Virus record (IMG/VR): IMGVR_UViG_3300048011_000525
Coordinates: 51,583 to 115,582 of that record
Length of the DNA stretch: 64,000 bases
Origin: a virus
Reading direction: 5' to 3' (one strand)
In this document: one piece after another, positions 10,021-62,997 of the stretch
Numbering within the stretch: the first letter of the stretch is position 1
How the letters are laid out: the number at the start of each line of letters is the position of its first letter
Translations under genes and position numbers: made by a program
Notes under the pieces: model-generated
Seen by the model: only the letters and a program-made list of their open reading frames with translations
Told to the model about the DNA's origin: nothing
Databases searched by the model: none

Positions 10021-10038
10021 CTCAAAAGACTGTATAAT
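10010..10038 (+). promoter_or_regulatory. Perfect-consensus sigma70 promoter of the hldE-hldD operon
   Basis: TTGACA(10010-10015)-17nt-TATAAT(10033-10038); predicted +1 falls on the ATG at 10045. Confidence 0.85.
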
Positions 10039-10044
10039 ATGAGT

Positions 10045-12399: not shown

Positions 12400-12402
12400 C
12401 AA

Positions 12403-38900: not shown

Positions 38901-39021
38901 TTTTAATACAAATATATGATTTACCACCAAAGCTCACTACATCATCTGCAACATATGTTGCGGCTGATGACCATTCGCCCTGCCATACAAACCTAATTCG
39001 TCCTAGTTTAAACTCTGCCAT
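26956..39021 (-). CDS. Giant virion structural/fibre protein (4021 aa)
   Basis: N-terminal W.G.W....Y...D.V.YGG repeats, CxRD helical repeats, beta-helix-like segment, propeller-like YG.G.FVA repeats, C-term GRVFYTSTDQDGNF.VG; TAAATA at 39049-54. Confidence 0.75.
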   Translation of the reverse strand: MAEFKLGRIRFVWQGEWSSAATYVADDVVSFGGKSYICIKNHTSSEAFNTDFSNEIPKWEVVSDGTKWRGLWEPEVEYAPGDVVKYGSLVYIAETGHTSATFEAPDFLGLEENLDNWTPFATSFDWKGDWTTDTRFKINDLVRYGGFVYLCTTAHISAATATLGLEANQGNWELFSDGLVYLGEWQTATRYKVNDVVKFGGNVFICVAPHTSDDFLTDETNWDVFIEGFQFEDSWNSSTVYQIGDTVTYGGYVYVAKTNNTAAQPTASPNDWEVFTTGFSFQGDWSSLDSYKVGDVVRLGGTTYVSVADSTDVTPPNDIYWSKLNSGINWTNSTQTFLQVQGTNVEGSGSGVRFDVTKSKTVYTVNVSTGFAGTGYAEDDTILVAGNSVGGTTPANDIVVTVTGVTGGAVDTVSHVGYSSTWTPATDYVVGDVVIYGASSFIATATHTSENANRPDNDLEADYWNLLTLGSEALALTTEGDMVYYGNQGPTRLPIGVDGQILRATDGKPDWANYGLVDNVVYVGPLGENEPAPRSGLSIDKPWRSVRYALEQVRDGYLNPQTKQILQNNKQFFKKEITSWLDYTYSVIVTETVAASRLFTTYDTSNLKDGMPIEFDGVDIFGGVVEGQTYYVDSIISSTTFRISETQGGISFIPTDATGVMTGKLSYNSAKCERDTGYIIDALYYDIGRGGTLRTTEAAKSYYTEAGNEYITDVFGYQRTQTIEAYEQLKSLVAKVLNNEKPVSYQSLMGIAIEERAAQFIDLTLVAEDSGKAKAGTLIDIVTVGLEAESNTAIALPQLPNTTIFIKTGTYNEILPIIIPEYTAIVGDELRTSVIQPQPAIPLLANDKDKTTSALNRIKDVSEQVIQNITIDATSGNTASQRYLNGYGGATESTQRLDMSIVKTLDILENGIEDVALVPDVGVTPTSGSNNASDSGFANAIAQIEANIDFIVAEQTAWIQAQVDGVIAPFAADFTFDTANCERDTRYILNALRYDLTYGGNFQTTVAARSYFVDGNPVYGTGKKEETLATYTHLKSIIGDVITETAITPTSGNGEAQDTAGSPGSAAAETFADDRIQEIFDTIDTDGTLPTPITPDTSWVSTSLVSITDDITTEKTTLQNSVIDFINTNYGKFVYNSSSCRRDAGILQTGAAYDVALETNYNSIRNGLAYRRSYAGEKVLEEQITETLGAITEQKSLVAALMSDPTAITRSNTYWDEVLDIVENNTPNAITWSGGSGDVDKTTARTELQTNRATIITDVITWINTNYPNFTYDQTLCERDTGYIIDAVSYDVQYGGNSASVEAAKAYFNGYIEVLPGAQRERTAAAIEQIAVIAATYMSGATEEAEVATLVQIISDVVNAGDTIALPTTVYPVITWVTAAIQTDAEATLDDTTVVPDLLQYITNNYTGFVYNHTKCSRDTGYIIDGLVYDMLFDSKFNGTKSGMAYRRAISSAEVVIDEQLEATLGAVDHLRREIRDITSGTDKLVSNSTTIKDIVVNNNVPGSYTITDPTGYDTGFFNARRLVVANKQFILDEAAAYLNTNHNAVWTALTLDEQNTWLDGIDELVDALRYDLTYRGNIESVVIARANYVDGVLVHPSNQKTARVDLATHLATIIDDIATGVSITPSAGNITSQDTAGTVGSAGAAAFAVDRLTEIKDTVDTGVLPAIINPSIAWVDTGLQEFKAVVDARRSLIQAGAIDYINKVHPALDYDETKCARDVGYMIDAIAYDVIFDSNFRSITAGKSYQRGITSTELVLANQLGATVDTIDYINESLTELTIGVDTTIGQANAANEAFKLVKDMTTVIQNGLNSVPPIKLPTPTGYNTDALIDTAYATTTNTTGDSSTYGNAADQLLANRDFIADELQQWLVDPANGYDDIWGGLSPNAQERCIRDAQFIVDAIRYDLTYGGNTQTNVAGAAYFSNFVLTIQNNELQATLASYARLREIIGEIVAETSVTTSPGVTETQDTSGTVGNAASIEFAQERVDDITYWLNNSTFETQTEVATEWQLTELTTAYERIKDRKDEIVDDVVFWVEKYHQDLEYNQATCRRDAGLIVDALARDIITGSNFATIKAGMAYYRAVPSALKTLRFEQSATVGAMNFLAEKVRRVALTAPNEAIKQLITDITSYIDGGSLPTPKWVDTNLEDTPDIVGASTIWENTAYIQEETVEYIAQTYPDLDYNEAKCRRDIKYVIDALRYDLTFGGESGMRRAVDYYYDATNNIQLGDNELEATLAAFDYIKFIAMGLAVNSVSSPGALQTKVEPTLRDESQLIGDSGTVTRVEDLMTLFYNSLGDGAFRKRIEVIEISSNVVTTAVNHGLTVGSELYFENGFSDVSAGTYYIKSVPAVNTFTVSAYFNGPELTLPESELGSFTEEWQFIPGPDYSNVTANLKQQFTNIQGSKSAIVEDVTDYIREKFPTLVYDQAKCERDVGLIIDAVGKDMLLDTNYLTTIAALSYYRGTQADVVIKEQRLVTVQAYRELKNYITTYVTGEGTTNAYGGRNDNTKAKVRINNLMDIVINVVKNGDKVTPEFQGTTTYFNDRETINAVDALKVNKDFLGEEATAWIKASYGGTVTDLGGSPGTLTFTSAHNLQLNDPIVFTGTVFGGIELATTYYVSNVVSATEIEVTDEVDGESINTFTGGTGTMTASYDFDETACKRDMSSYIDAMIYDLQYPGNYHSLRAARLYVNAVEGSEYSDMFYVRNATGARNMTFNGLRGNLSEKNEFGTRRPTGGAYVSLDPGFGPWDTEAWVTNKSCYVQNVSTFGTGCIGNKIDGSLHAGGNRSVVSNDFTQILSDGIGVWCSGNNSLTELVSVFAYYNYAGYIADFGGRIRATNGNSSYGTFGVIAEGTDLGEEPIVADADNLSQNALVYSVSTDGEEEVLAMEYSNAGTGYTNVQYAISGSGFNAATVGDEFRDQAVVEARIIDVDDGTTVGGEDFVIAQNVAQGGDPVHITLAATDFALGDAYNGMRVQITAGTGVGQYGKVLNFNNGTKNCTVYKPSFDNLFVTATSSINNVITVDDTTTLYVDMPIYFSEDVGGLSRGDSPSDVYYVNNIVSGGQFTVSTEVGGVTEVLTNDTTSATIYAAGFDNIIPGKPSEASLDLTTGYTVEPAIVYAKPGFTSSSVSTADAIDFGPGIFADGRFIALEGGAGASTNYSLDGENWTTGGALPASANWSDVAYGGGQGATARAVVGGLGGTGAVLEAELGELNSIGLPGPTQIARVNVVAGGTGYTTPPTIVFTSTLGGGGATAVATVKDGAIQNIIITSTGAGYAQAPTVAAATDKLTEVIVETRGSGYLNTPTVTISGGGASTQAQVIANLENEGVIAIRLDVDVDDNPLFGEGYTTTPTVEIVDTEAKWVAVANGSTTNAYLPTIDEANTNWTAGDVFSQSHYVGIAYGAGTFVTVGSVGGVDAAQTSTNGSNWTPRTMTTPASGTFSAVRYGAGKFVAINTDGYTAVSSNGILWEAGGNMPSAIGDWTSLAWGNGRFVAISDAGEYAISYDFGANWYSEGTTLNNISATGWTRVAYGQGLFVAVCDGASSCAISSDGLIWNEGDLSGTASWSTPIFGNPNNVPTWVALTSDANTTANKIKTGARAHGRCYADDGTLIATTLLEPGSGYPVGDIVSFTSPHTIELDSTDNMYVGQPITFEGADLETAALNSEILYYVSDVTGSTIEVSLLSGGPSYNIESIVTQDMVGSTFQAGPLVTITDPSSTVDANINPRIRNGVLGQPTFTNRGSGYTSATSELGGDGSADLYQPSTFIAVRNLFELPEPGSNVEFANIPEKYYKLVTISNVIGQEGSYTATFQISPGLDVLNAPKDGTVITTTNKYSQVRLTGHDFLYIGTGNKAKTNYPFVDITSAYIEAQQLSSGGGRVFYTSTDQDGNFNVGGLFGVQQSTGTATLDADAFNLAGLQSLQINGLGLGIGSAIITQFSTDPFFTENSDNIVPTQRAIRSYITAQIGGGQSSLNVNTLTAGTVFIAGDEITTTSGGQLNIKAKMNFTGGVDGAPVALGYFLSR

Positions 39022-39056: not shown

Positions 39057-42000
39057 TTATTGTTGTCCGCCGCGTGTAGGATCGACAAGCGTCTTAAAGA
39101 AATATGCCATTGCTAATCCATCTCCGGCCCATCCACTGTTACCAAATGGTCCATCAAAATTAGTAAGTGTTGGCATTTTAACTTGCCATCCTTCTCCGCC
39201 TTCTTGTACTGAAGATGTAATAATATCAGGTCCACCTACTTTAACAGTACCTGCTTGTAGCAAGCCTGTAAACGTATCTGCACCACCTTGTGACAATCTA
39301 CTTGCCAAATATGTTCTAATTGCTCTCTGTGTTGGAATCAAGTTGTTCGAGTTAGCAACGAACGTTCCGTCTGTTGAGAAAGCATTAATTGTTACCGGTG
39401 ATCCGCCAAGTGCAACACCGCCAATTGCTAGTTCTGTTAGCCCGTCTAGTCCAAATTCATCTGCACTCAATGTAACAATACCAGTTGCCTGTTCAACAGC
39501 AAACAAGTCACCAACTCTAAAGTTACCGTCTTGGTCTGTACTTGAATAGAACACACGCCCGTTGTTTGTTTCTTGAATTTCGTCTTGCGGTTCTAAGTTT
39601 GTATTTTCAGGTAAGTCGGGATAGTTAGACTGCTGTTCGTTACCAAAACCAATATTTAGGAAGTCATGGTTTGTTAGACGTACTTGGCTAAATTTACTAC
39701 GAATAGTAAATGGTGTATTGTGTGCCGGAGAGTCTGCTTGATCAACTTGCGGACTTAATTGAATTACTGCTTCTAAGTTTGGTATAGATGTGCCTCTTAG
39801 CGCAGTTGCAGTTGCAACACGGTATATTTCAGAATTACCTTCAAATTGTAAGTTGTCACCTGGTGCCGGAAAGCGTGTAATATCTTTTGCAATTATTCTT
39901 AGACCTTCTTGAAACTGATCTGAAAATCCGCTGCCTCGTAGTGCAATACCAGTAGATGTTGTGTTATACCCACTACCAAAATCTACAAAGCTAGGTGCAC
40001 CTAGTGTACCGTTGCCTATACGTAAATCTGTAACTGCTTCTTCTGAGTTGTTAGGATCAATAATTTTAATTGTTGGACCAAAGCTGTCATCAGTATAACC
40101 TGATCCAGGTTCAAACATATTAATATCTGTTAGTGACTGACTTGTTACGCTTGCAAATGCTTGTGCCCTAGCACCTGCTGAAATTTTATTTGCTATCTGT
40201 CCTGTGCTATCCATTGTTAAGAACCAGCCCTGTTTAGTGTCTGCATTGAACGTGAATCCAATTACACTATACAAAGACTGGTTAATTATAGGCTGTACAT
40301 CCCACTGTAAACCGTCAAAGGATGTGCAACAAATTCCAGACTCGTTGTTAATAACAACAAATACGCCTTGTCCGTATTCTAATACAGTTCCTTTTACATT
40401 TGTAGTTGACTCATACCAAGTTACACCGTCGAAACTGTATGCTGCTGTCCTGTCGTCTGTCGAGACTGCAACAAAACGTCCGTTACCGTACTTAATCGAG
40501 CGCCAGTTGTTAACTGTAGAATCTTGTGCAGTATCTAAGCTGCCCACTGTCCAGTTATCAAGCGCATCGCCAGGGCCGTTTGATAACACTTCGTGGCTTG
40601 ATCCGTTAATGATAACAAAAGTACCTTTACCGTATGCAATATCAACTTGATCGTTATCTGATACAATAGAGTTAAAAGATGTAATACTAGTCCAAGTTGC
40701 ACAATTGTCTGTAGAATAGTAAGCTTCTCCGGCGCCCCTTGTGATTGCTATAAATATGCCGTTGCCGTATTGTACTTTTTGATAAGTTCCTTGCGACAAT
40801 GTTGGCAAATCAACACTTAGCCAAGTTAATCCATTTGATACTGAATATAAACAATTTTTTCCAGTCTCTGAAAGTATAAACCAGCATCCGTTACCGTATG
40901 TTCCGTCTATCCAACCATTGTTTTCATTCGGATTGTCAACATCAATTGCTTGACCATATTGAGGAAGTGTAATTTTAGTATCCCATGCTGTATAGTCACT
41001 AGTTGTATACACTTCATTTCCATATCTTGGAATAACTATCGGAAAAAATCCATTTGAAATTATAGTTTGCGGAACTAAGTCTTCATTTACAAATCCTGTC
41101 ATCCCTTCTTGATAAAATGGAGGTGTGTCAAATTCTATTCTTGGTGAAACTTCATAAACTGATGTTGAGTCAAATGCACTAGTTGGTGGCGTCCCAGGAT
41201 TAATATGATCCCATCCTACTGCATTAATTTGCATTGACCCTGTTTCATCATCTAATGCAAATTCAACAACGCCGCCGTCAGTGTCTGTTAGTGTTAACTC
41301 AAAAGTTGAACCAAGATCGGTTGCTTGGAGTACATAGTAATTTGTACCTGATTGCACGCCGCCAAATATTTCAGTAAAGAAGGAAGCCTCCATTAAATCT
41401 CGTCCTGCTTCAAGTTCTTCTTTTCCGCCTGGCAAAGTACCTACAACTGAACCATTTTCAGTTGTAAGAATAACTTCGTCTAGTACTGTTCTTACAATTA
41501 CTTCACCTGTTGCTGTAGTTAGCGGTACTGCTGCGCCGCCTTCTGTAGCGGAAATTGTAAACGAGGTAGCATCGTTAATAACTTGAATAAAATAAACTGT
41601 ATCGTTTGCAATTTCGCCAAACGTAATACCAGTAAACATAATCGGACTGCCAACAGTAAATCCAGCAGTACTATCAACTGTAATTAGGTTTGTAATTGCT
41701 TCAGTAGCAGTCGAAGTTCTTGTAATTACATCACTTGCTATACTAAACTTAGTACCGTCAATGATGTCGTTAACATAATATCTTGTTTTTTCTTGTATGC
41801 CACCAAGTGTGCCTGACTTAAAAATAATTGCATCAAGTGGTGTTAGTACAGAAGTATCTGAAGTTAGTAAAGAATTGTCTGATGCACTAGTGTCTGTCAC
41901 TGTTATATTTCGAAGTGCTGTTGAAACTGAGAATTTATTATTTTCATAAACATCGTGAATGTAATAAGTATCGCCTAATTCAATTCCTCCAATACTTCTG

Positions 42001-45000
42001 CCAGTAAATTGAATTGGCAGTGTAACTTGCATATTATCAGTTGAACTTGCTTCTAAGAAACTAGTACCGTCTGGATAGTTTAGTGTAAACTGTTCAAACC
42101 CTTGGAATTCGTCAACTGCATCTTCAACGTTAACATTAATTAATGGCCATACAGCGCCACCAAATACTGTTGAAATTTGTATGCTAGTATCGTCAATTAC
42201 ATCGATAATATAATAATCAAAGTTAGTAATAACTCCACCGAAAACCGGGCCACTAAAGTTAATTTTTTGTCCTACACGAAGTCTTTCAGTACTTTCAACA
42301 ATCATGCGATTGTTTTGATCACCAAGAGTACCAACAACTGCTACTTGACTTTGTGAACTTGATAGAACATCAATATCGTAAACTGTTGGAGTAAATGTAA
42401 TAACTTGATTTTGATAAAGTCTATGAAAATCTGCTCCGGATCCTAATGTTAATACATTATCAACAGCCCTAGCTGCAACAACTTCTTGTTGCCCAAATGA
42501 TTCTTTGGTTATATTAGCAAATTTAGTTATTGGATCATAGCTAGAAATAATACCGTATTGTCCAGCGCCTTTACCGGACGATACGCTTAAACGCATACCT
42601 TCGTATTCTGCTGCTGTTGAAACTTCTGACTGCGCTAGTACTAGATATTCGGTGTTTCCGCCCTGTGCATTGTTTGATTGAAAGTTATAACCTAAGCCGC
42701 CTTTTCTAATAATATTACTTTCTAACAATCTAGTTTGATATATAGATCCAGAACGTAACTCATCTGCAACTATTCTTGCATCTTGACCAGCACCTTGTAC
42801 ATTTATATTTGCATAAGATGTAGGCATATCGGCAAATGTTTCTAAGAAGAAATTCATAGTGTCACCAATTTCAATCTGTGTTCCGTAAAAGTTAGTATAT
42901 CCTGTAATACCGTCGACGCCTCGAGGATACAATCTAAATTGTAAATTTGTATTTTGTGCAGTTTCGTCATATACTGTATACTGTATTCTCCACCAACCAT
43001 CTGATAGGAAATTAGCTTTGATATTAGTTGGAGTTGTTTCGCTGTCAGTTAACACTTGAGTCGATACATCCTGTGATTCAAAGTTAAATCTTACATAGGA
43101 AGTCCTAGTTTCAAACCCACTAAAAATATTATAAAAATCTACATAGTTTGTGTCACCTTGTTTTACGTGTACACTAACTGTATACGGTAATGCACTTCCA
43201 GTTGGCACTGTTCCTACACTATCAAATGACTGAATTGCTGTAATACTCAATTCTTGTACTGTAATTACAATATCATTTACGTCATCTCTGCCGCCAAAGT
43301 TTGTACCTGCAAGAGTAATCTGGTTACCAACAACGTAGCCGCTGCCACTGTTGTTTAATGTAACTTCATAAAACTCACTAGTTACTGTAACATCAAATGT
43401 TGCGTCTATACCAGAACCTGAAATGTTTGTACCTGCAATATTAGTATATGTTCTACCTTGCGGAGATATAGTAACATCTTGATAAACGTATGCGCTATCT
43501 GACAGTGAAGTGTTTGCTGTTATTTTCCAGGCAAATTCACCATCGTACGGTGTTGTGTTTGCTCTAACAATTGAAATATTACCGTCTGTTTGCCAATATT
43601 CGTCTGGTAAATTATTACTTAATAAGCTATTTGAATGTTTTAATAAATTAGTTGTAGAAGTAAAATAATCTTCGCCAGCGTGTTTATATTCTAATTTTAG
43701 TACTTCTGAGTTAGCACCTAGTGCAGATACTGGCAGTGCAATAGCATCGTTGTCTCTGTTGTTAACTGTGCCTGTTGCAGGTACTTCTGCAACGTCAAAT
43801 CCTTCAGCAACACAACCAAATGTACCATATGAACTGTTACCGTTTGTAGCACGAATACGTCCACCGTCTTCCGCAAAATATCCTGCATAGTTATAGTATG
43901 AAAACACAGAAACACACTCTGTTAATGAGTCGCCACCTGTACACCAAATTCCAATACCGTCTGATATAATTTGTGTAAAGTCATTTGAAACCATTGAGCG
44001 GTTGCCACCGTTATGTAGCGTACTATCAATTTTACATCCAGTACATCCTTTGCCAAAGTTAGTAACATTTTGGATATAAGGAGAACGTGCTGTAATCCAT
44101 ACACTAGTATCATCCGGTCCGGTGCCTGGATCAAAACCTACATATGCGCCGCCAGTTGGTCGTCTTGTTAAAAATTCGTTTTCTACAGACAATGTTCCTA
44201 ATAATCCTTTAAGTGTCATATTACGGACACCGCAGTCATTAGTTACTTGAATCATATCTCCAAGTGCTTCGCCGCCATATACATACATTGCTCCAATGTT
44301 AGTTGTTATTTCGACTTGATCACCGTCGGGTTCTTCTGACACACTAAATCTGTCAGATTCAATTGAACTACCAATTACATAATAAGTTTTACCAGGAATT
44401 ACATCGCCAATAACTGTACTAATTTCTTCAACTGGATTTAGTGATACAAACTGTACAGGAGTATTATGCTCCATATTAATTGTTGAACCAACAATGAATT
44501 GATTAATAAATCCAAACGTTCTTGTACATAATGTATTAACAGGTGCTGCTGGCTGTACAGTTGTGCCACGCAACTCGTCGCCGTTTAATGCTGTATTAGG
44601 TGGCATCTTAATAGGCAGGCGCTCATTATAAGTGCCTGATTTAATATTAATTGTTGAGTATGTGCCTTGGTTTTCTGGCGGGATGCTCTTAGGAGATCCG
44701 TCTAAGAATGGCTGTACTAATATTTTTTCTAATGCTCCTACAAAAGTAAGTGCATCGTCTTCGAGTACTAATCCATTATTAAAATACTGTGGTATTGGAT
44801 TTTGAACATTTTCTAACACTCGATAATCTTGTGCTGGTGCAGTGTTTGTAAGTGCTAATTCAATATTATTAAATAACTCTACAAAGAATTCTGCAAAAAA
44901 TTCTGCTTGTTCTGCAACAGTGTCATTTGTAAATCTATTTGTACTTTCGGTATTAAAGTATGATAGTGCTGCTCTAACAGTTTGTGCATTGCCGCCGCGT

Positions 45001-46919
45001 TTTAGATCGCGAATTACACCGTCAATAACAAGTTGTGCATCTCGAATTGTTTTATCATTATCAAAATTATAAGAACTATCAAACGGTTCGATGTTTTGAT
45101 TTTGTTGATATAAAAACCAATTGTATGTTTGTTCAACAATCCAATCTTTATTGTTTTCAAGTAATACTTTTGCATTTTGACGCAATGTGCCTAGTTTAAC
45201 TCTCTCACAAGCATATTTAATTGTTTTCCAAGCAGTATCCGGTGTAGTACCGTTAGTTGATAAATCTTCGCCATTTGTTGCAACATAATACACGTTCGGA
45301 GTAAAGTCAATGTCGCTCCAGGTTGGAAGTCCATTAACAACTTTAAGTACGTTACCGTTACTGCCAGTTTCTAATGGTGAATTGTTTTCTCCGTCGAAAA
45401 CAATTGTTTGTCCGAAATCAGTTAGACTATTTCTTTGATCGTGTTGTAAATATATTACCCAATATGTATTTTGTAAATCGTTATCTGGTCTAGATACTAA
45501 AGACGAAGTGTGTTCTAGTACACATTTATACGTTGCATTTTTCCAATAAGTTATATCATCGAGATTGTAAAGAGTGCTTTCACTCCATTTACCTTCCCAA
45601 TTAAATCCTGGAATTAATAGTTCCCAAATGCCTGCTTTTGCACCTGAAAAAGTTAATACTGCTTCGTCTGATATAGGTCCGTCTGGTGCTTCGTTAAGGA
45701 TAACTGTAGCGTACATAGACGCATTTGATGAGTCGTCGTCATAGCTTACTTCTCTAACTGTTTGTCCTCTACCAAAACCTTCGCCAGTAACAGTCATACC
45801 AACAGTAATTAAGTCTGATGCAACTGAGTCTGCTAAGTTAACTTGAATGCGTGTGCCAGCGGAGTTTTCTGCTTCGTAAGGTGCTTGTACTGTAAAATTG
45901 CCCGGATTTTCATTTATACTATCAACTAGTGCAACATATAAGTCGCCTCCGTGTCTAACTACATTACCAACTTTGTACTCGCTATTAGAAGACCATTGTC
46001 CTGAAATTTCATATGCTTCTGTAATTAATTCCCAAGCATCGGTTGAATCATCACCAAAAGTTGTACTTGGTGTGTTGCCAATATTGTTAATAATTTTAGA
46101 CTGGAATAAGTATCCGCCATATTGTACAACGTCACCTGGTTGATAAATTGCATTTAAATCATAAACTCCGTCAAAGTCTAAACCAGGAAGCCATTCTTCC
46201 CAATATGCTGATATAAAAGTTTCATAAAGTTCAGTTGAGTCAGCAAAGTCAACAAATTCTGCACTCGGAGCATGTCCCCAAATACATCTATATAGGCTTG
46301 GACCGTATTTTACAATATCATTTAGTTTATACCTTACTTGCGAACTATCTTGATTTGACGTTACATATTCGCCTTTCCAAGATACACCGTACTGCAACAG
46401 TTTCCAGTATTTCTCTGTACTATCTTCTACATCAGTATAATCTACTTCTAAACCTTCTAAATCTGTTGCTGCTGATACATGTGATACAATACATTCGTAA
46501 ACTGAGCCGCCGTAGTTTACAATATCACCTACACCATATGTAGTACTTGATGTCCATTCGCTTGCCCAAGTTTTAGACTCCGCATAAACGTCCCACTTGT
46601 CAATATCTAAATCAAGCACTGCTCCACTTAAATGCTGTTCGTTACATTTGTAAACAATACCACCAAAAATTACAATGTTATCTAGCGCATACTGAGTTAA
46701 TGGTTCCCATGGACCTTTCCAGGTCTGCCCAGTCATCATCAATTCCCACTTAGGTTCAGCTGCTCCTATGTCGTTGTAAAACTCATTTGATGTGTGCGGA
46801 ATCAAGCAAACATATGCTTTACCGTTAAACTGAACAATTTCATCTTTGTTGAAAAAGGTTTGGTCTCTCCATGGGCCTGCCCAACTAAAGCGTAATCTAC
46901 TAATTTTAAATTCTGACAT
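39057..46919 (-). CDS. Giant virion structural/fibre protein (2620 aa), paralog of the 4021-aa protein
   Basis: MSEFKISRLRF vs MAEFKLGRIRF; shared SNDFTQI.SDGIG.WC, GGRIRATNGNSSYGTFG, SQVRLT.HDFL.IG; TAAATA at 46946-51. Confidence 0.75.
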   Translation of the reverse strand: MSEFKISRLRFSWAGPWRDQTFFNKDEIVQFNGKAYVCLIPHTSNEFYNDIGAAEPKWELMMTGQTWKGPWEPLTQYALDNIVIFGGIVYKCNEQHLSGAVLDLDIDKWDVYAESKTWASEWTSSTTYGVGDIVNYGGSVYECIVSHVSAATDLEGLEVDYTDVEDSTEKYWKLLQYGVSWKGEYVTSNQDSSQVRYKLNDIVKYGPSLYRCIWGHAPSAEFVDFADSTELYETFISAYWEEWLPGLDFDGVYDLNAIYQPGDVVQYGGYLFQSKIINNIGNTPSTTFGDDSTDAWELITEAYEISGQWSSNSEYKVGNVVRHGGDLYVALVDSINENPGNFTVQAPYEAENSAGTRIQVNLADSVASDLITVGMTVTGEGFGRGQTVREVSYDDDSSNASMYATVILNEAPDGPISDEAVLTFSGAKAGIWELLIPGFNWEGKWSESTLYNLDDITYWKNATYKCVLEHTSSLVSRPDNDLQNTYWVIYLQHDQRNSLTDFGQTIVFDGENNSPLETGSNGNVLKVVNGLPTWSDIDFTPNVYYVATNGEDLSTNGTTPDTAWKTIKYACERVKLGTLRQNAKVLLENNKDWIVEQTYNWFLYQQNQNIEPFDSSYNFDNDKTIRDAQLVIDGVIRDLKRGGNAQTVRAALSYFNTESTNRFTNDTVAEQAEFFAEFFVELFNNIELALTNTAPAQDYRVLENVQNPIPQYFNNGLVLEDDALTFVGALEKILVQPFLDGSPKSIPPENQGTYSTINIKSGTYNERLPIKMPPNTALNGDELRGTTVQPAAPVNTLCTRTFGFINQFIVGSTINMEHNTPVQFVSLNPVEEISTVIGDVIPGKTYYVIGSSIESDRFSVSEEPDGDQVEITTNIGAMYVYGGEALGDMIQVTNDCGVRNMTLKGLLGTLSVENEFLTRRPTGGAYVGFDPGTGPDDTSVWITARSPYIQNVTNFGKGCTGCKIDSTLHNGGNRSMVSNDFTQIISDGIGIWCTGGDSLTECVSVFSYYNYAGYFAEDGGRIRATNGNSSYGTFGCVAEGFDVAEVPATGTVNNRDNDAIALPVSALGANSEVLKLEYKHAGEDYFTSTTNLLKHSNSLLSNNLPDEYWQTDGNISIVRANTTPYDGEFAWKITANTSLSDSAYVYQDVTISPQGRTYTNIAGTNISGSGIDATFDVTVTSEFYEVTLNNSGSGYVVGNQITLAGTNFGGRDDVNDIVITVQELSITAIQSFDSVGTVPTGSALPYTVSVHVKQGDTNYVDFYNIFSGFETRTSYVRFNFESQDVSTQVLTDSETTPTNIKANFLSDGWWRIQYTVYDETAQNTNLQFRLYPRGVDGITGYTNFYGTQIEIGDTMNFFLETFADMPTSYANINVQGAGQDARIVADELRSGSIYQTRLLESNIIRKGGLGYNFQSNNAQGGNTEYLVLAQSEVSTAAEYEGMRLSVSSGKGAGQYGIISSYDPITKFANITKESFGQQEVVAARAVDNVLTLGSGADFHRLYQNQVITFTPTVYDIDVLSSSQSQVAVVGTLGDQNNRMIVESTERLRVGQKINFSGPVFGGVITNFDYYIIDVIDDTSIQISTVFGGAVWPLINVNVEDAVDEFQGFEQFTLNYPDGTSFLEASSTDNMQVTLPIQFTGRSIGGIELGDTYYIHDVYENNKFSVSTALRNITVTDTSASDNSLLTSDTSVLTPLDAIIFKSGTLGGIQEKTRYYVNDIIDGTKFSIASDVITRTSTATEAITNLITVDSTAGFTVGSPIMFTGITFGEIANDTVYFIQVINDATSFTISATEGGAAVPLTTATGEVIVRTVLDEVILTTENGSVVGTLPGGKEELEAGRDLMEASFFTEIFGGVQSGTNYYVLQATDLGSTFELTLTDTDGGVVEFALDDETGSMQINAVGWDHINPGTPPTSAFDSTSVYEVSPRIEFDTPPFYQEGMTGFVNEDLVPQTIISNGFFPIVIPRYGNEVYTTSDYTAWDTKITLPQYGQAIDVDNPNENNGWIDGTYGNGCWFILSETGKNCLYSVSNGLTWLSVDLPTLSQGTYQKVQYGNGIFIAITRGAGEAYYSTDNCATWTSITSFNSIVSDNDQVDIAYGKGTFVIINGSSHEVLSNGPGDALDNWTVGSLDTAQDSTVNNWRSIKYGNGRFVAVSTDDRTAAYSFDGVTWYESTTNVKGTVLEYGQGVFVVINNESGICCTSFDGLQWDVQPIINQSLYSVIGFTFNADTKQGWFLTMDSTGQIANKISAGARAQAFASVTSQSLTDINMFEPGSGYTDDSFGPTIKIIDPNNSEEAVTDLRIGNGTLGAPSFVDFGSGYNTTSTGIALRGSGFSDQFQEGLRIIAKDITRFPAPGDNLQFEGNSEIYRVATATALRGTSIPNLEAVIQLSPQVDQADSPAHNTPFTIRSKFSQVRLTNHDFLNIGFGNEQQSNYPDLPENTNLEPQDEIQETNNGRVFYSSTDQDGNFRVGDLFAVEQATGIVTLSADEFGLDGLTELAIGGVALGGSPVTINAFSTDGTFVANSNNLIPTQRAIRTYLASRLSQGGADTFTGLLQAGTVKVGGPDIITSSVQEGGEGWQVKMPTLTNFDGPFGNSGWAGDGLAMAYFFKTLVDPTRGGQQ

Positions 46920-47742: not shown

Positions 47743-50700
47743 TTATCCTAAAACTAGCACCGTTGAAAGTGCAATCTCCTCTGCTTCATTTCTTGTAATA
47801 CCAGACGAACTACCTGCTACTGATACCCAGTTTTCACCGTCCCAAATTTCAACACGACTGTCGTCTGTATTAAATCTTGTTTGACCTAATTCTGTAAATT
47901 CAACTGGTGGTCTTTGGCCACTTGGTCCTGTAGGAAGTACAACTCCGTAAGTACCATCAAATTTAACATACCCAGCACCGGCATTTTCAAATGTTGTTAA
48001 ACTATTAGCTAACGTGTTTCTAATAGTACTACCATTAAATGAGATGTTATCAAATTTTACACTGCCTGTACCGTTTGCTCTTAGAGCAAGATCCTTGTTT
48101 GCATTAGTAGTTTCAATTATATTACTATCAATACTAATATCGTCCACTTCAACTTTAGGAGCAGTAAGGCCGTCACTATCAATAGTAGCAACTGTTGATC
48201 CAGCAACATCAAATCTAATTGTATTGTCGTTGGTTCCTTCTGATAATTCAGCAGTAATTTTAGTATCGCCGTCAAGGTCTTCAACGCCTTTTAAGTTGAT
48301 CCAATTAGTTCCATTATATCCTTCGAATCTTTCTAGATCAGTGTTATATCTAATTTGTCCAGTTGCTACAGTTGGACGCTCTAGTGTAGTTCCTGTTGGA
48401 ATTTTAAGGGCGCCAGTTGCGGAAATATTTACTACACCGCTTCCTGGAGAAATAGTAAAGTCGCCAGCTGTAGTAATAGTACTTCCACTAAATGAGATAG
48501 CATCAAATACCACGCTACCAGTTCCGTTTGCACGAAGCTCTAAATCACTGTTTGACTGGGTTGTTGTAATGAAGTTATCATCAATTAAAATGTCCCCAGT
48601 ACTAAAACTGTTAGCAGTAATTTTACCACTACTTACAATGTTACCTACAGTAATAGTTCCGTTAACTATTAAATTTTGATCTACTATAAGATCATTACTA
48701 GGTATATAAATTTTTCCTGTGCCGTTTGCACGTAGTTCAAGATTTGAATCTGTTTCAGTAGTTGTAATTTTATTGCCGCTAACTTGAATGTCTTCAAATT
48801 GAACAACTGTTGCGCTAATAATTACATCGCCTTCAACATCTAAGTTACCTGTTAATGTAATATCACCTTCTTGTATTACATTGCCTGTATGCGTAATATT
48901 ACCAACAATATTTGTATTGCTTAGGACAGTATTTCCAGCAACAGTTAAGTTGTTGTCAATAACAACATTATTATTTGGAACATAGACTTCTCCAGTTCCA
49001 TTTGCACGTAGTTCTAAATTTGAATTACTTTGTGTAGTAGTAACAAAATTATCGTCGAGTAACAAATCACCAGTTGTAAAAGTATTTGTTGTAATATTTT
49101 CACTAACATTAATAGTCGTTAAGGTAGTTGTGCCTATAACATTTAAGTTGTTGTTTATTTCTACATTGTTATTAGGAATACTAATAATACCGTACTCAGT
49201 AGCACGTAAATCTAAGTCACTGTTTGATTGAGTAGTAGTAATAAAGTTATCATCAATTTTAATATTTTCAAACTGTGCTGTTCCTGTAGCAGATAAACTT
49301 CCAGTAATAGTATGATTACCAGTAATATTATGATTACCAGTTTGTACTGTATTGCCGGTTTGTGTTACATCGCCGTCTATATTAATATCTTGCAAACTTG
49401 TTGTTCCGGCAACGGTTAGATCGTTATCAATAACAACATTATTATTTGGAATATAAACTTTTCCAGTTCCGTTTGCACGTAAATCTAAATTACTATTTGA
49501 CTGAGTAGTTTCGATAAAGTTTTCATCGATTAGAATATTACTTGTACTAAACCTATGAGCTGTAATTAGTCCTGTAGTAAGTAAATTACTAGAAATATTA
49601 ATATTTCCGTCTACTGTTAAATCGTTAACAATTTTTACATCATTATTTGGTATTAAGATTTCACCAGTACCTGATGCACGTAATTCTAAGTCTGCATTTG
49701 ATGTAGTTGTAGTAATAAAATTATCGTCAACTAATATCTCTTCAAACTGTGCTGAACCGGTTACATCTAAATCTTGAGTTACAATAACATTACCTGTTAT
49801 AGAAGTGTCACCAGTTTGTATGTAGTCACCGATATGTGTAATTACACCTGTAACTGTAACGTCATCGTTGAATGTAGTTGTTCCATCTACTGTTAGATCA
49901 TTATTAATTTGTACATTGTTATTTGGTATTAGTATTTCACCTGTACCACTAGCACGTAAATCTAAATCCGAATTACTATCTGTAGTTTGAATTACATTTC
50001 CAGCAATATCGATATTACCATTACTAATTGCGCCTGCAATATCAAAATTGCCGGTTTGTATATAATTGCCAGTATGAGTAACTAAACCGTTTATAGTTGT
50101 GTTTTGTAAGTCTGTTGCACCGCTTACTGTTAGTGCTTGACTAAATGTAACATCATTAGTTGGTATGTTTATAGTACCAGTGCCTGCTGCACGTAACTCT
50201 AAATCACTATTAGTATCGGTTGTTTCAATAGTGCTGCCATCAATTTGAATATTGCCATTTGTAAACGATCCAGTAATTGTATAATTACCAGTTTGTGTAG
50301 TATTACCTATGTGCGAAATAGTACCTGTTACAGTAGTACCTTGTAAGTTAGTTGCACCACTAACAGTTAAATTATTGTCTATTTGTACATCATTATTTGG
50401 AACATAAATCTCACCAGTTCCGCTTGCACGTAACTCTAAATCACTGTTTGACGATGTTGTTGTAATTACATTACCAGCAATATCAATATTGCCATTACTA
50501 ATTGAACCTGCAATATCAAAGTTACCAGTTTGTATATAATCGCCAATGTGAGTAATTGTTCCAGTAATATTAGTATTAGCTAGTGTTGTTACGCCGCTAA
50601 CAGTTAAATTATTGTCTATTTGTACATTATTATTTGGAACATAAATTTCACCAGTGCCGTTAGCACGTAGTTCTAAGTCACTGTTTGACGCAGTTGTAGT

Positions 50701-52962
50701 AATGTAGTTGTCAGTAATTGTAATGTTATCTAAATTAATTGTATCAACAAATAAGTTTTTCCAAGTCTTAACACTTGTACCTAAATTGTATGTACTTGCA
50801 ACTTTAGGGTTAATATCTGAATCAATGCCTGCTACAATTTCAATAGTGTCAGTTGCTTCGTCACCAATAGTAATATTTCCGCCAATTGTTACATTACCAG
50901 TTACATCTAAACTTCCTGTTACATTTACGTTAGAATTTAAATTAACAGTGCCGCTGCCAGCAGTAAAGTTAGCATCTTGTGTTAATGTTTCAATAGTATT
51001 TCCGCTAATGCGCCAGTCACCGGTTTCAATTTTAGTGCCATCAACAAATGTAGTATCGCTTCCAGTATTAAATGTAACGCCGTTTTCTGTATTAATTTCA
51101 AAATCACTTACAGCAAAAGTTACATTGCCAGTTTCTTGGTTAACGTAAAACAGGTCGCCGACTCTAAAGTCACCTTTATGGTCTACTGAATTATAACGTA
51201 TTCTTGCACCTGCAGATTCTACAATTTCATTTGCTTGTATAACTGTGTTTGGATCGTTATCAACTTCTTTTCCATTACCTATATATGCAACGTTGTGTCC
51301 AATAGCGTACATGATAACGCCTGGGCCTTCGCCAACAAGTCCAAAGTTACCATAAACACTTGCTGATGCAATAAGTCTAACTTCTGCACCAAACTCGCGT
51401 AAATCAAAACTATCTATAGTTGTTGCTGTGGCTGTACCGTCTGTAATACTCTGCGGAGTTAAATCAAATCCGTCTAAATCTAAATAACTGCTTATGTAAA
51501 CATCATTGCCATCTACACTATCAATGGTGCCTGTAAGCACTGTAGAAGCGTCAGCACTGGTGATAGTTAAAATATTACCCTGTGCAAAGGTTCCTGTAAT
51601 ACCGCTTAGTGTTAGCTTAGTTTTACCTGCGCCTCTGCGTCCTGTTGTTCCATCGTAAGCATACATACTACGATTAGCAAAGTATGTAAAGCTGTTTAGC
51701 CATTCAACCCTTGCACCGTTAGTTAATACTACTGCATCAACACCCGGAGTAATAAACGTTACTGAATGGAATAGTAGTGCTGTATTAACTGATGTACTCG
51801 ATGCTACTGCACCGTCTAAGAATACACCTTTACCTGCGTCACCGTCGTTAAATCCTCTAGGATCACCTGGTAGATTTGTTTGTGATGCAACACTTGATCC
51901 GTTTGTAATTACAGTTGTATTTCTAATGTAAGGGCTTCTGCTAGTTGCAGTATATCCAGTTGCATACTTAAATGCATAACCCGGACTGTAAAATCCTGTA
52001 ACAGTTAGTTCTTCAACAGTTGTTTCACCATTAAGTAGAAATGCATCATTTGTGTTTGTTGCCAATGTTGGTTCTATTGTTACAGAACGAATTCCTTCAC
52101 CTTTAACTGTAACACCTGCTGGAACTGTTAATGGAAATTCTTCTGTATAAACACCCGGACTAATAAGGATAGTGTCTCCAGCAACAGCTACACTTAGAGC
52201 GTGTTTAACACTTGCAAATGGATCAAAGAAGTGATCGCCTAACTGTCCGTCATTGCCATTTTCTGCAACATAATATGTATTACCATGTGTAAGATTAAAA
52301 TCAATTGTGCCTACGTCTAAACTGTCACTAATAATAAGACTCGAAGCACGTAAGTTATTAACATATACATCGTTCCATCTGTTGCCGCCTTGATCAGGAT
52401 CGCTACCTAAAGTATAAAAGTCGTCTATGTCTGGAATAATGTTTGATGCAACATCTGCATTAAACACAAGATTATCAGTATTCTCGTCACCTAGTGTAAT
52501 ATTACCATCTGCTGTAATATTACCGCTTGCATAAATGTTTCCGTCGACATTTAGATCGCTATGTACATCTACACTGCCGGTTCCATTTGGACGAAATTCT
52601 AAGTTTGCGTTTGAATCGTTTGTTGTAATAGCATTGCCTTCAATGTCAATACTATCAATTCTAATTTTGTTAAGTGCAACAACAGTGTCAAGTGTTGCTA
52701 AGTTTAAGTAAGGTTGAGTAGAACTAATAGTATTACCTTGAACAGTAATATCTGCTAAATCTGCTCTATTAGAAACTCTTAAATCTGTAGTACGTGTAGT
52801 ACCTGTGATGTCTAATTCGTATTGAGGTGTTGCGTTCTTGATACCGATGCGTTGATTATTAACATCAAGATATAATAAATCCGTCTCGAAAGCTAAATCG
52901 ATTCCATTACGAATCAAATTCGACTTTAAGAGCGGACCGCTAATACGACCGATGGCGCTCAT
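47743..52962 (-). CDS. Long fibre-like protein (1739 aa)
   Basis: About 12 N(S/A)DLELRA(N/S)GTG repeats; YYVAENGND..G...PFASV.HAL followed by a beta-helix-like domain; P.GT..ERP..G.IRYNTD modules. Confidence 0.72.
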   Translation of the reverse strand: MSAIGRISGPLLKSNLIRNGIDLAFETDLLYLDVNNQRIGIKNATPQYELDITGTTRTTDLRVSNRADLADITVQGNTISSTQPYLNLATLDTVVALNKIRIDSIDIEGNAITTNDSNANLEFRPNGTGSVDVHSDLNVDGNIYASGNITADGNITLGDENTDNLVFNADVASNIIPDIDDFYTLGSDPDQGGNRWNDVYVNNLRASSLIISDSLDVGTIDFNLTHGNTYYVAENGNDGQLGDHFFDPFASVKHALSVAVAGDTILISPGVYTEEFPLTVPAGVTVKGEGIRSVTIEPTLATNTNDAFLLNGETTVEELTVTGFYSPGYAFKYATGYTATSRSPYIRNTTVITNGSSVASQTNLPGDPRGFNDGDAGKGVFLDGAVASSTSVNTALLFHSVTFITPGVDAVVLTNGARVEWLNSFTYFANRSMYAYDGTTGRRGAGKTKLTLSGITGTFAQGNILTITSADASTVLTGTIDSVDGNDVYISSYLDLDGFDLTPQSITDGTATATTIDSFDLREFGAEVRLIASASVYGNFGLVGEGPGVIMYAIGHNVAYIGNGKEVDNDPNTVIQANEIVESAGARIRYNSVDHKGDFRVGDLFYVNQETGNVTFAVSDFEINTENGVTFNTGSDTTFVDGTKIETGDWRISGNTIETLTQDANFTAGSGTVNLNSNVNVTGSLDVTGNVTIGGNITIGDEATDTIEIVAGIDSDINPKVASTYNLGTSVKTWKNLFVDTINLDNITITDNYITTTASNSDLELRANGTGEIYVPNNNVQIDNNLTVSGVTTLANTNITGTITHIGDYIQTGNFDIAGSISNGNIDIAGNVITTTSSNSDLELRASGTGEIYVPNNDVQIDNNLTVSGATNLQGTTVTGTISHIGNTTQTGNYTITGSFTNGNIQIDGSTIETTDTNSDLELRAAGTGTINIPTNDVTFSQALTVSGATDLQNTTINGLVTHTGNYIQTGNFDIAGAISNGNIDIAGNVIQTTDSNSDLDLRASGTGEILIPNNNVQINNDLTVDGTTTFNDDVTVTGVITHIGDYIQTGDTSITGNVIVTQDLDVTGSAQFEEILVDDNFITTTTSNADLELRASGTGEILIPNNDVKIVNDLTVDGNINISSNLLTTGLITAHRFSTSNILIDENFIETTQSNSNLDLRANGTGKVYIPNNNVVIDNDLTVAGTTSLQDINIDGDVTQTGNTVQTGNHNITGNHTITGSLSATGTAQFENIKIDDNFITTTQSNSDLDLRATEYGIISIPNNNVEINNNLNVIGTTTLTTINVSENITTNTFTTGDLLLDDNFVTTTQSNSNLELRANGTGEVYVPNNNVVIDNNLTVAGNTVLSNTNIVGNITHTGNVIQEGDITLTGNLDVEGDVIISATVVQFEDIQVSGNKITTTETDSNLELRANGTGKIYIPSNDLIVDQNLIVNGTITVGNIVSSGKITANSFSTGDILIDDNFITTTQSNSDLELRANGTGSVVFDAISFSGSTITTAGDFTISPGSGVVNISATGALKIPTGTTLERPTVATGQIRYNTDLERFEGYNGTNWINLKGVEDLDGDTKITAELSEGTNDNTIRFDVAGSTVATIDSDGLTAPKVEVDDISIDSNIIETTNANKDLALRANGTGSVKFDNISFNGSTIRNTLANSLTTFENAGAGYVKFDGTYGVVLPTGPSGQRPPVEFTELGQTRFNTDDSRVEIWDGENWVSVAGSSSGITRNEAEEIALSTVLVLG

Positions 52963-60833: not shown

Positions 60834-61238
60834 TTAGTCAGCTTCGAAATCGTCAGCACCTGTGAATGAATCATCAGTACCAGCTTCTTCCATTTCAACT
60901 GCGCCGTCAGCATTATCATCACTAAAGTTCCAAGCAATACTTGTGCCTGTATCTAGTGTAACTTTACGTCCTGCAATTTTAGTTACTTGACGTGCTGTGC
61001 CGCCATCGTCTTTAACTGTAATAGTCATATCGCCTACTGCTAGAGCACCTTGCGATACATCTGCTAATGTGCAATCTTCTGTGTTTGTGCCGTCTGTGCA
61101 ACGGAACTTTTTGCTTCCTAATTGCTTTACAATCCAACCGTTTGCTTCGGCTTGTCCTGTTGCACGGAAACGTACTTTAATTTCGTTACCGCCAACTGTT
61201 GGCTCTCCGAAAAATCTTTTGTTAATTGGTCTTCCCAT
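60834..61238 (-). CDS. Hypothetical, probably abundant virion protein
   Basis: MGRPINKRFFG..G.IVKQLGSKKF; own late box (61334-39), AGGAG SD and downstream hairpin. Confidence 0.6.
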   Translation of the reverse strand: MGRPINKRFFGEPTVGGNEIKVRFRATGQAEANGWIVKQLGSKKFRCTDGTNTEDCTLADVSQGALAVGDMTITVKDDGGTARQVTKIAGRKVTLDTGTSIAWNFSDDNADGAVEMEEAGTDDSFTGADDFEAD

Positions 61239-61344
61239 TTGTTTTCTCCTATAAAAAGTAGTCCTATGCCCGTTCTATGGGCTACGCTGTGGTGCAGCAT
61301 AAGTCCGCCTTGCGGCACACTATCTGACATATGTATTTATCAAA

Positions 61345-61375
61345 TAAGAAAAAAGCCCGCATAGTGGCGGGCTTT
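61345..61375 (-). terminator. Intrinsic terminator downstream of pqqA
   Basis: Minus strand AAAGCCCGC-cactat-GCGGGCTTT-TTTCTT. Confidence 0.85.
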
Positions 61376-61430: not shown

Positions 61431-61502
61431 CTACTTGTTCATTACATACATTGTTACTTCGAATCCGAATCTCATCTCTGTTGCTGTTGGTTTTGTCCAC
61501 AT
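61431..61502 (-). CDS. pqqA: Pyrroloquinoline quinone precursor peptide (23 aa), below the ORF-track cutoff
   Basis: Hand translation MWTKPTATEMRFGFEVTMYVMNK*; MW.KP..., GFEVTMY with the E-x-x-x-Y core; AGGAG SD 6 nt upstream. Confidence 0.93.
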   Translation of the reverse strand: MWTKPTATEMRFGFEVTMYVMNK

Positions 61503-61545
61503 AGTGTACTCCTAAAATTAAGTTAATAAAATTGTACTGCAATAC

Positions 61546-61561: not shown

Positions 61562-61586
61562 GAGACAAAAATCATCCGTAAAATCA

Positions 61587-61682
61587 TTAAAGATATATAC
61601 GTTTTAATAAAATATCATTTATTTTTTTAATATGGTGCTGTTTGATTAATTGCTTGTAGCACCAAAGGGTATAGTTAGTCAT
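61587..61682 (-). CDS. 31-aa basic peptide downstream of the glutamine riboswitch
   Basis: MTNYTLWCYKQLIKQHHIKKINDILLKRIYL*; strong GAGGAG SD. Confidence 0.65.
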   Translation of the reverse strand: MTNYTLWCYKQLIKQHHIKKINDILLKRIYL

Positions 61683-61708
61683 ACACTTCTCCTCGTTAAA
61701 GTTAAAGT

Positions 61709-61751
61709 GCGTTCCTTCGCAATATGCTACTTCCGTCCCGTAGGATGAACG
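61709..61751 (-). ncRNA. Glutamine riboswitch (glnA RNA motif, glutamine-I class)
   Basis: Minus strand CGUUC-A-UCC(UACG)GGA-C-GGAAGUA-GCA(UAU)UGC-GAAG-GAACGC: P1 CGUUC/GAACG, P2, P3 and the GGAAGUA/GAAG junction of the glnA motif as recalled; TAAATA at 61758-63. Confidence 0.82.
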
Positions 61752-61766
61752 TAATATTATTTAGTC

Positions 61767-61818: not shown

Positions 61819-62997
61819 TTATGAGAACGTTACGTTACTCATAGTTACTGTACCTAGATAATCCGCTGCGTTACCTAAAGATGACGCAGTGTTGTTTAGC
61901 TCAACATAACCATAACGTGTCATGAAGCTAACAACTGGCTCAAAGCTATCTGGGTCTAGTACTACACCGCTGCTCATCAATGGGATGTATGGGCAGTAGA
62001 ATGCAGCAGCATCTGACTCTGAAGAACCTTTGTAACCAACTAGTACGTTGCTGTCGTCAGCACTGTATGTGTTTACATAGATTTTCATAGCATTGTTCAA
62101 TGTACCAACAAACTTAGTGTTTGTAGGTGCTTCAAACGAACCTTCAGTTGTACGTGCAAACGCTGAAGTAGTTGCTGATTGTAGAACAGTTAGTGCCTGT
62201 GGAGACACAACAGCCCAGTTACCAGCGCCACGACGTGTGCGTTGTGCAATAGTGTTTGCAACACGGTTGATTTGAACAGCTAGTGCAGCATGTTCATCAC
62301 CAACGAATGTAGCTGTACCACTAACACCTGCTTGGTTGTATGCTTCTTGATTTGAAGTTCCTGCTAGTGAGTTAAGTGATCCTAGGACCTCTTGATCAAT
62401 TTCAGCAGTAATTTCTTGTGCTAAAGCAGCCATAATTTCAGCTTCAACATCGATGCCATGCTGTGACTGTGCGTCTTGCGCAGCCTCAAATGTCCAACGA
62501 GCTGATAGCTTACGTGATTTAGCTTCAACAGTTTGCTTCAAGATTTGGATGCTTAGTTTGTTACCAGCATTACCTTCTAGTGAAGCAGTTGAATCTGCTT
62601 TACCAGTTCCAGCACCTGAGTACTGTTCTGCAATCTTGAATGGGCTTAGTGCCTCTTCACCAGATACAGTAGTTTGTGCTGCATCTGCTGAGTTTGTTAC
62701 AGCGTCCGCATAGCGAACACGTAGTGTGTGGATTTGGCCCACTGGACCTGTCATAGGTTGTACACCTACCAATTCGTTTGCAATAACGGTTGGCATTACA
62801 CGTCTAATGACTGGTAAAATAACACGATTAAGTGTTGCGACATTGCCTGCAGAAGTTGCTCCAGCTGTAGCCGACTCTGACAAATACTTACGAGTATTTT
62901 CAAGAGTACTTGCCATTACAGATTTTTTATTACCTGTTAAGCCTTCTAATAGAGCACCTTTAGTCTCCTGCCAGCGACTTTCTAGTAGTTCCGACAT
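61819..62997 (-). CDS. Major capsid protein (T4 gp23-like)
   Basis: RRVMPTVIANELVGVQPMTGPVGQI, VEAKSRKL.A.WT.E.AQD, EI.AEIDQE, TRRGAGN, GYKG..E.DA..FYCPYIPL, F.TRYG. Confidence 0.96.
   Translation of the reverse strand: MSELLESRWQETKGALLEGLTGNKKSVMASTLENTRKYLSESATAGATSAGNVATLNRVILPVIRRVMPTVIANELVGVQPMTGPVGQIHTLRVRYADAVTNSADAAQTTVSGEEALSPFKIAEQYSGAGTGKADSTASLEGNAGNKLSIQILKQTVEAKSRKLSARWTFEAAQDAQSQHGIDVEAEIMAALAQEITAEIDQEVLGSLNSLAGTSNQEAYNQAGVSGTATFVGDEHAALAVQINRVANTIAQRTRRGAGNWAVVSPQALTVLQSATTSAFARTTEGSFEAPTNTKFVGTLNNAMKIYVNTYSADDSNVLVGYKGSSESDAAAFYCPYIPLMSSGVVLDPDSFEPVVSFMTRYGYVELNNTASSLGNAADYLGTVTMSNVTFS

Follow-up and report, generated by a model that had tools for sequence, protein, structure and literature searches.

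The stretch of viral DNA analysed here (the window) comprises 64,000 nucleotides, corresponds to bases 51583-115582 of a 115,582-bp IMG/VR viral record, and carries on its minus strand a gene for PqqA, the precursor peptide of PQQ. The gene is a member of the PqqA family, is intact and evolves under purifying selection, has a sequence of the host type, stands in a cassette with its own signals directly after the capsid gene of a jumbo phage, and is accompanied by no maturation genes in the 115.6-kb contig. We consider it highly probable that this phage-borne pqqA is a functional auxiliary metabolic gene (AMG) that supplies the consumable precursor of PQQ synthesis; its expression, the timing of that expression, the conversion of the peptide and any benefit to the phage are inferred.

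The pqqA gene and the phage that carries it

The preliminary description had placed a PQQ precursor peptide at the interval now assigned to pqqA, with the strand left unstated; the gene is there, and it is encoded on the minus strand (Table 1). A plus-strand reading of the same interval was rejected because its translation is meaningless. Comparison of the 23-residue product with curated profiles gave 40.7 bits for PF08042 (PqqA; gathering score 21.1, E 2.2e-10, model positions 1-19 of 19) and 39.3 bits for NCBIfam TIGR02107 (cut-off 20, model positions 1-21 of 21). Both scores are about twice the curated cut-offs, which places the peptide in the PqqA family and identifies it as a genuine PqqA, far above what chance would yield in a 64-kb window. 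PQQ is made from PqqA by cross-linking of a Glu-x3-Tyr pair, and the peptide contains such a pair, Glu15-x3-Tyr19 (E15-V-T-M-Y19). The leader of PqqA, with its W-x-K-P motif, is the PqqD-binding region, and this motif is likewise present in MWTKPTATEMRFGFEVTMYVMNK (as M-W-T-K-P).

Table 1. Features at and around pqqA, in window coordinates.
Feature	Coordinates	Strand	Basis or remarks
Major capsid protein gene, gp23 family	61819..62997	-	PF07068, 336.9 bits; stop at 61819
Glutamine riboswitch aptamer	61706-61753	-	RF01739, 50.4 bits (gathering score 35)
31-codon ORF between riboswitch and pqqA	61587-61682	-	open reading frame
Conserved 'pqqA box' TTAATGATTTTACGGATGATTTT, candidate promoter/operator	61568..61590	-	single occurrence in the window
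Two TAAATA boxes	61561-61556 and 61551-61546	-	second inside GTTTAAATA, conserved in the jumbo-phage clade
Shine-Dalgarno sequence AGGAG, 6 nt before ATG	61509..61513	-	sequence; kept in four related phage loci (alignment A1)
pqqA, 23 codons and TAG stop, product MWTKPTATEMRFGFEVTMYVMNK	61431..61502	-	reverse-complement translation; PF08042; TIGR02107
Intrinsic terminator, stem GCCCGC/GCGGGC followed by T-run	61352..61375	-	9-bp stem, 6 G-C pairs
freshwater-2 RNA motif	61236-61319	-	RF02980, 66.1 bits (vs. 49.9)

A Methylophilaceae MAG (L096) encodes the identical peptide (100%) in two copies arranged in tandem, and two other viral loci (L144 and L173) encode it as well. All 246 copies that we collected from bacteria and viruses share an unchanged EMRFGFEVTMYV core, as the search pattern demands, and the PqqA copies of cultured phage isolates also keep this core. 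The peptide varies only at leader residues 4-8 and in its final residues, in the same way as the paralogues of the hosts themselves. At the codon level, comparison of the gene with all copies gives means of 8-9 synonymous and about 2 non-synonymous differences, and within the clade of related jumbo phages 5-8 codons differ synonymously vs. 1-4 non-synonymously, with all changes outside the EMRFGFEVTMYV core. Because synonymous differences exceed non-synonymous ones both within the clade and overall, pqqA is an intact gene subject to purifying selection in phage lineages.

The contig that carries the gene is a fragment of a jumbo myovirus and is neither a bacterial chromosome nor a chimera, as follows from its gp23-family capsid gene, the match of the capsid DNA to jumbo phages (~68% nucleotide identity with genes of the ~350-kb phages Serratia BF, Erwinia pEa_SNUABM, Yersinia fHe-Yen9-04 and Pectobacterium CBB), a gene in the window for a T4 gp15-like tail sheath stabiliser, and several giant ORFs. 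We assign it to the ~350-kb lineage with a Rak2/CBB/BF-like capsid; the 115.6-kb record is about 33% complete (CheckV), and its GC content of 35-40% is compatible with Methylophilaceae. The gene pqqA lies between the capsid gene, which has its own terminator at 61794-61771 (-), and further virion genes, and thus has phage genes on both flanks, as is required of an AMG; the ORFs downstream of pqqA are common to related phage contigs.

Three of the giant ORFs are located on the minus strand at 26956-39021 (4021 aa), 39057-46919 (2620 aa) and 47743-52962 (1739 aa), and are probably virion or fibre proteins; the two longest have N-terminal CBM_5_12 carbohydrate-binding repeats, and the shortest contains a bactofilin-like stretch. 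The virion region also includes a sugar-nucleotide module at 9583-13026 (+) and 18454-20274 (-), with NUDIX, HldE-like (ADP-heptose-type) kinase/cytidylyltransferase, epimerase, cupin, 2OG oxygenase and carbamoyltransferase genes.

Four related viral loci (L200, L214, L219 and L234) encode capsid proteins with 82-85% amino acid identity to that of the window, and in all four pqqA directly follows the capsid gene, in either orientation. The order in L200 is that of the window, in L234 pqqA precedes the riboswitch, and L214/L219, which lack the riboswitch, have pqqA on the other strand, where it runs convergently to the capsid gene.

Cassette signals and neighbouring RNA elements

The clean SD and terminator mentioned in the preliminary description are both in place (AGGAG and a hairpin with a T-run; Table 1). 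The hairpin is present in the MFE as well as the centroid fold, and a hairpin followed by a T-run likewise lies 3' of pqqA in L200, L214/L219 and L234. A structured 5' leader was rejected, as the fold of 61600-61340 is, terminator aside, no more stable than that of shuffled sequences (z = -1.26).

The box upstream of the SD is not confined to this phage. Its viral form, the motif [TAC][TAC][AC]ATG[AG]TT[AT]T, precedes 49 of 116 viral copies, at -77 to -95, compared to a background of 0.85% per 130-nt window, and a CATAAT/TATAAT-like box lies 3' of the motif in 41 of 66 cases, mostly 38 nt from the motif start. In Methylophilaceae genomes, a palindromic form of the box, CTCATGATTTTCATGAG, is located ~110-125 nt upstream of orphan pqqA copies, and in two such genomes four of the five genome-wide occurrences precede pqqA copies, compared to none for the reversed-pattern control. 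These palindromic sites (G001:C1:416024-416040 and 1186145-1186161; G003:C1:52228-52244 and 2713518-2713534) are candidate operators or hairpins. Given that the box is enriched at viral copies and nearly exclusive to pqqA in the two host genomes, the phage cassettes share what is, to judge from the motif, a pqqA-specific upstream element of the host.

In the window and its clade, TTTAAATA takes the position that is occupied by the CATAAT/TATAAT -10 box in other phage cassettes. TAAATA is found upstream of 16% of the genes of the contig, including the giant virion genes, vs. 2.7% of random windows, i.e., an approximately 6-fold enrichment, which fits a late-type promoter but is no proof of one; its position and conservation make it a candidate for this role. 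No sigma-70 promoter was detected at pqqA in a consensus scan. A general phage promoter was rejected because GTTTAAATA and the TTAATGATT box each occur once in the window and TATAAATA is unenriched, which leaves the short TAAATA as the sole element enriched upstream of genes.

The upstream box, GTTTAAATA, the SD and the terminator travel with pqqA in the related phages (alignment A1). Since these signals and the gene move together despite changes in gene order and orientation, pqqA is a self-contained, autonomous cassette that is kept by selection.

A competitor to an independently expressed cassette is that pqqA mainly serves as the distal gene of a transcript that starts with the glutamine riboswitch and continues through the 31-codon ORF, in which case precursor supply would be tied to the nitrogen status of the host and not to a promoter of the gene's own. 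The riboswitch and the 31-codon ORF lie 85-250 nt upstream of pqqA on the same strand, and read-through from this unit into pqqA is possible because no terminator is predicted between them; L200 has the identical order, with a homologue of the 31-codon ORF after its riboswitch (60% identity over 25 aa). This linkage is not conserved, however, given the order in L234 and the inverted, riboswitch-free arrangement in L214/L219, and among the viral matches listed only 2 of 120 have a riboswitch near pqqA. Moreover, the stretch that separates the 31-codon ORF from pqqA contains the conserved box and the box at the -10 position, both of which accompany pqqA when its place changes, and the glutamine riboswitches known so far act on translation of the adjacent ORF. 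We therefore regard expression mainly from the riboswitch transcript as unlikely, although riboswitch-driven co-transcription, which is not conserved, may add to the expression of the autonomous pqqA cassette in this particular phage.

Several other RNA elements were noted in the course of this analysis. The 3' end of the freshwater-2 motif covers the SD and ATG of a 134-aa ORF (61238-60834), of which the motif is a candidate cis-regulatory leader. The aptamer of L234, placed after pqqA, is stronger (58 bits), and a manA RNA motif (RF01745, 58.6 bits) is located just 3' of that riboswitch, at L234:7442-7646 (+). A tmRNA lead was rejected, as the blastn match to the 'SsrA' of phage Melnitz is the glutamine riboswitch aptamer; the Melnitz paper places a riboswitch in the 3' part of the Melnitz ssrA. 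ARAGORN found no tRNA or tmRNA in the window.

Maturation genes, host and spread among phages

The preliminary description had stated that pqqB-E are lacking in the window, and this extends to the whole 115.6-kb contig (~33% complete), in which we identified no PqqB, PqqC, PqqD, radical-SAM domain or PQQ-dependent alcohol/methanol dehydrogenase (TIGR03075). The PqqC and methanol dehydrogenase searches were validated by recovery of their targets in two Methylophilaceae genomes. Neither xoxF nor pqqB-E was found in the contig, inside or outside the window, and the association with pqqBCDE by which PqqA can be recognised is absent from it. The absence applies to this contig, as about two thirds of the genome lie outside it and could carry such genes. 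A lone pqqA does not disqualify the gene, because most host copies are orphans as well.

Among longer viral records that bear pqqA, PqqD is present in 0 of 49, and all seven records that are at least 90% complete lack PqqD, methanol dehydrogenase and integrase. Because these seven near-complete records carry pqqA alone, an orphan pqqA is the normal viral configuration. A full-length PQQ-dependent methanol/alcohol dehydrogenase was found in one of the 49 records, the 72-kb G313, where the 628-aa enzyme (G313:C1:34049-35731 (+), L244/L245) scores 608 bits, above the TIGR03075 cut-off, and lies ~7 kb from pqqA. A link between our contig and G313 was rejected, as the two have only 2 weak ORF matches, and for the same reason G313 says nothing about the unseen part of the genome.

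To identify the host, we matched a degenerate DNA pattern of the EMRFGFEVTMYV core against species-representative genomes and obtained at least 120 genome matches, nearly all in Methylophilaceae (Methylotenera, Methylophilus, Methylovorus, Methylobacillus, Ca. Methylopumilus and OM43); the exceptions among the matches listed were a few MAGs labelled Acidovorax caeni or Pseudohongiella. Since this pattern presupposes the core, we also compared the full peptide with an even 300-genome sample of the phylum, in which Ca. Methylopumilus universalis had 91% identity and all other genomes at most 65%. Identity to Methylophilaceae copies is 91-100%, and no best match fell outside this family. The sequence of this one 72-bp gene thus provides good support for Methylophilaceae as the predicted host family. 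The earlier assignment to an 'OM43/Methylopumilus-like' host stands with respect to a Methylophilaceae-type PqqA (91-100% vs. at most 65% identity) and is not established at the finer level, because the same peptide variants are found in Methylotenera, Methylophilus, Methylopumilus and OM43. The hldE-like gene was tried as an independent host signal and proved uninformative (~38% identity to Campylobacterota, Firmicutes and others).

A host outside Methylophilaceae is conceivable if the cassette came from a methylophage through recombination and now works, or idles, in another PQQ-making bacterium. The host evidence comes from a single 72-bp gene, the same core occurs in the few MAGs labelled Acidovorax or Pseudohongiella, and the 25 pqqA copies closest at the nucleotide level are all viral, none being bacterial, which makes phage-to-phage transfer plausible. 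Nevertheless, we consider such a host very unlikely, given that the core is almost exclusive to Methylophilaceae among the at least 120 genome matches, that a large identity gap separates the peptide from those of other Pseudomonadota, that all cultured phages with this form of PqqA infect Methylophilales, that in Methylophilaceae genomes the upstream box specifically accompanies pqqA copies, and that the GC content is compatible with this family.

A tblastn search of PqqA against 50,697 GenBank phage records yielded 12 matches, namely Venkman, MEP301, MEP401, MEP402, P19250A, four Melnitz isolates, one Manatee Spring contig and two weak Acinetobacter entries. Thus, pqqA is present in all cultured Methylophilales phage records that the search returned, mostly without annotation; the ORFs of the isolates are intact and fall in unannotated gaps in Venkman, MEP301, MEP401 and P19250A. 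The cultured phages resemble the phage of the window in having intact PqqA ORFs of 23-24 codons (77-96% identical, 84-88% at the nucleotide level) in intergenic gaps, and three of them have the same upstream box. They differ in genome size and type, being sipho-, podo- and T4-like myophages of 35-141 kb that infect marine OM43 or freshwater LD28, and they carry pqqA in early/recombination regions or near the baseplate, whereas pqqA of the window follows the capsid gene. In Melnitz, gene _152 ('hypothetical protein', L003:3961-4056) runs antisense over the PqqA ORF (L003:4001-4066 (+)) and is probably a mis-called gene, and the early genes that surround pqqA in Venkman and MEP301 run antisense to it. 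The publications describing Venkman, Melnitz and MEP301 do not mention pqqA.

In IMG/VR, at least 120 contigs bear the core. When the cassette was masked, comparison of the surrounding DNA at the nucleotide level grouped 126 viral loci into 15 context clusters, and the estimated genome sizes of pqqA-bearing viruses range from ~35 kb to ~370 kb. Tentatively, these loci might represent one mobile, self-regulated pqqA cassette with a host-derived type of box that is exchanged among unrelated sipho-, podo-, T4-like and jumbo phages of Methylophilaceae and that, in the jumbo clade, was re-inserted in either orientation after the capsid gene, with its -10 element rewired from the sigma-70-type CATAAT to the phage TAAATA late-type box; we hold this to be possible but doubtful. 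Should the rewiring be real, precursor supply would move from host control to the late programme of the phage, and should the cassette be mobile in this way, the host of nearly every methylophage could be recognised from pqqA and its box.

Function of the phage-borne precursor

PqqA is consumed stoichiometrically in PQQ synthesis. Under the proposed AMG function, a phage infecting a Methylophilaceae host would produce the 23-residue precursor peptide, the single-copy PqqD/E/B/C of the host would convert it to PQQ at one peptide per molecule, and the resulting PQQ would serve as cofactor for XoxF/MxaF methanol dehydrogenases, from which the cell draws its energy; the boost to host methanol oxidation put forward in the preliminary description is likewise hypothetical. 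The supply of this consumable would keep PQQ synthesis running as host transcription declines, and the cassette in its post-capsid slot, with box, -10-position box, SD, ORF and terminator, would need no other phage pqq gene. Host copies of the very same sequence exist, and the host enzymes should therefore accept the phage peptide as they do their own, so that its conversion to PQQ by host PqqD/E/B/C is likely, as far as can be predicted from the sequence.

The hosts themselves amplify pqqA alone, with 3 and 5 copies vs. one pqqC in two Methylophilaceae genomes; in this family, 3-12 pqqA copies per genome accompany one pqqBCDE (Beck et al. 2014, PMC4109929), and in a methylotroph production strain with five pqqA copies, the rate of PQQ synthesis tracked pqqA expression (PMC9851590). 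Conversely, extra precursor may matter little within a single infection cycle because PQQ is recycled and its biosynthesis is slow.

The host orphan copies are the closest counterpart of the phage gene, being similar in the 23-residue peptide (91-100%), the stand-alone layout and the pqqA-specific upstream box. The phage box, however, lies ~35 nt nearer to the gene than that of the host and usually comprises only the left half of the host palindrome, the host has CATAAT at the -10 position where this phage clade has TTTAAATA, and the codon usage of the phage pqqA is more AT-rich than that of host copies. Among phage genes, the cyanophage psbA (D1) offers a possible analogy, in that only the fast-turnover part of an energy system of the host is phage-borne and the rest comes from the host, although psbA belongs to another pathway and encodes a protein rather than a RiPP precursor. 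Expression and function of psbA during infection have been demonstrated experimentally.

A different role of the peptide would be that of a decoy that titrates PqqD/PqqE or a protease, or of a small regulatory peptide, such that PQQ output is lowered or unchanged. Orphan RiPP precursors can serve other roles, and a metagenome study linked a PqqA family to co-expression with defence systems in Pseudomonadaceae, without direct bearing on the present gene (PMC11118758). The phage peptide, however, is identical or nearly so to host copies of the functional type, including both cross-linked residues, so that normal processing is expected, and its variation is confined to the same positions as in host paralogues, which makes a role other than precursor supply highly improbable. 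Finally, pqqA might duplicate a host integration target in the manner of an attP site, or be host DNA left by imprecise excision, with no selected function in the phage. Small conserved host genes (tRNA, tmRNA) often are phage attachment sites, Venkman has Cro/CI-like and antitermination-like genes, and phage and host copies have the upstream box in common. We nevertheless give this reading a very low probability, because a search for tyrosine integrases yielded none in the contig and none in the 49 pqqA-bearing viral records, 7 of which are at least 90% complete, because the phage retains the entire ORF, including SD and terminator, rather than a mere 3' fragment, because synonymous changes in pqqA outnumber non-synonymous ones, and because the same slot is used across the jumbo-phage clade although the capsids are only 82-85% identical.

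The novelty implied by the preliminary description was overstated, as PqqA in predicted Methylophilaceae phages was published in 2020: Coutinho et al. (Microbiome 8:163, PMC7678222) found PqqA in T4-like phages of Lake Baikal, in population VP_266 with a predicted Methylophilaceae host, and proposed viral PqqA as an AMG that enhances methanol oxidation, and a 2026 study again lists viral pqqA/D/E (PMC13188868). Like the phage of the window, VP_266 is an uncultured large freshwater phage of the myovirus type that encodes the PqqA precursor and has a predicted Methylophilaceae host; it also encodes a methanol dehydrogenase, whereas none was found in the 115.6-kb contig, and the phage of the window is one of a jumbo lineage of ~350 kb whose capsid is Rak2/CBB/BF-like. 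New in the present analysis are the conserved post-capsid slot that holds the cassette in either orientation, the independence of pqqA from the neighbouring riboswitch, and the pqqA-specific upstream box that is common to phage and host copies. For this window the gain is modest, in that a jumbo-phage lineage, a genomic slot and a regulatory box are added to a published concept.

Cultured pairs of phage and host are already available for a test of the proposed AMG function, namely Venkman or Melnitz with OM43 strain H5P1, and P19250A with IMCC19250. In seas and lakes, much of the methanol and other C1 compounds is consumed by Methylophilaceae (OM43, LD28/Methylopumilus and Methylotenera). If these bacteria routinely receive additional PQQ precursor from their phages, the rates of methanol oxidation would be directly shaped by infection, and a 72-bp gene that gene callers overlook would be among the most widespread AMGs of Methylophilaceae as well as a practical marker for host prediction.
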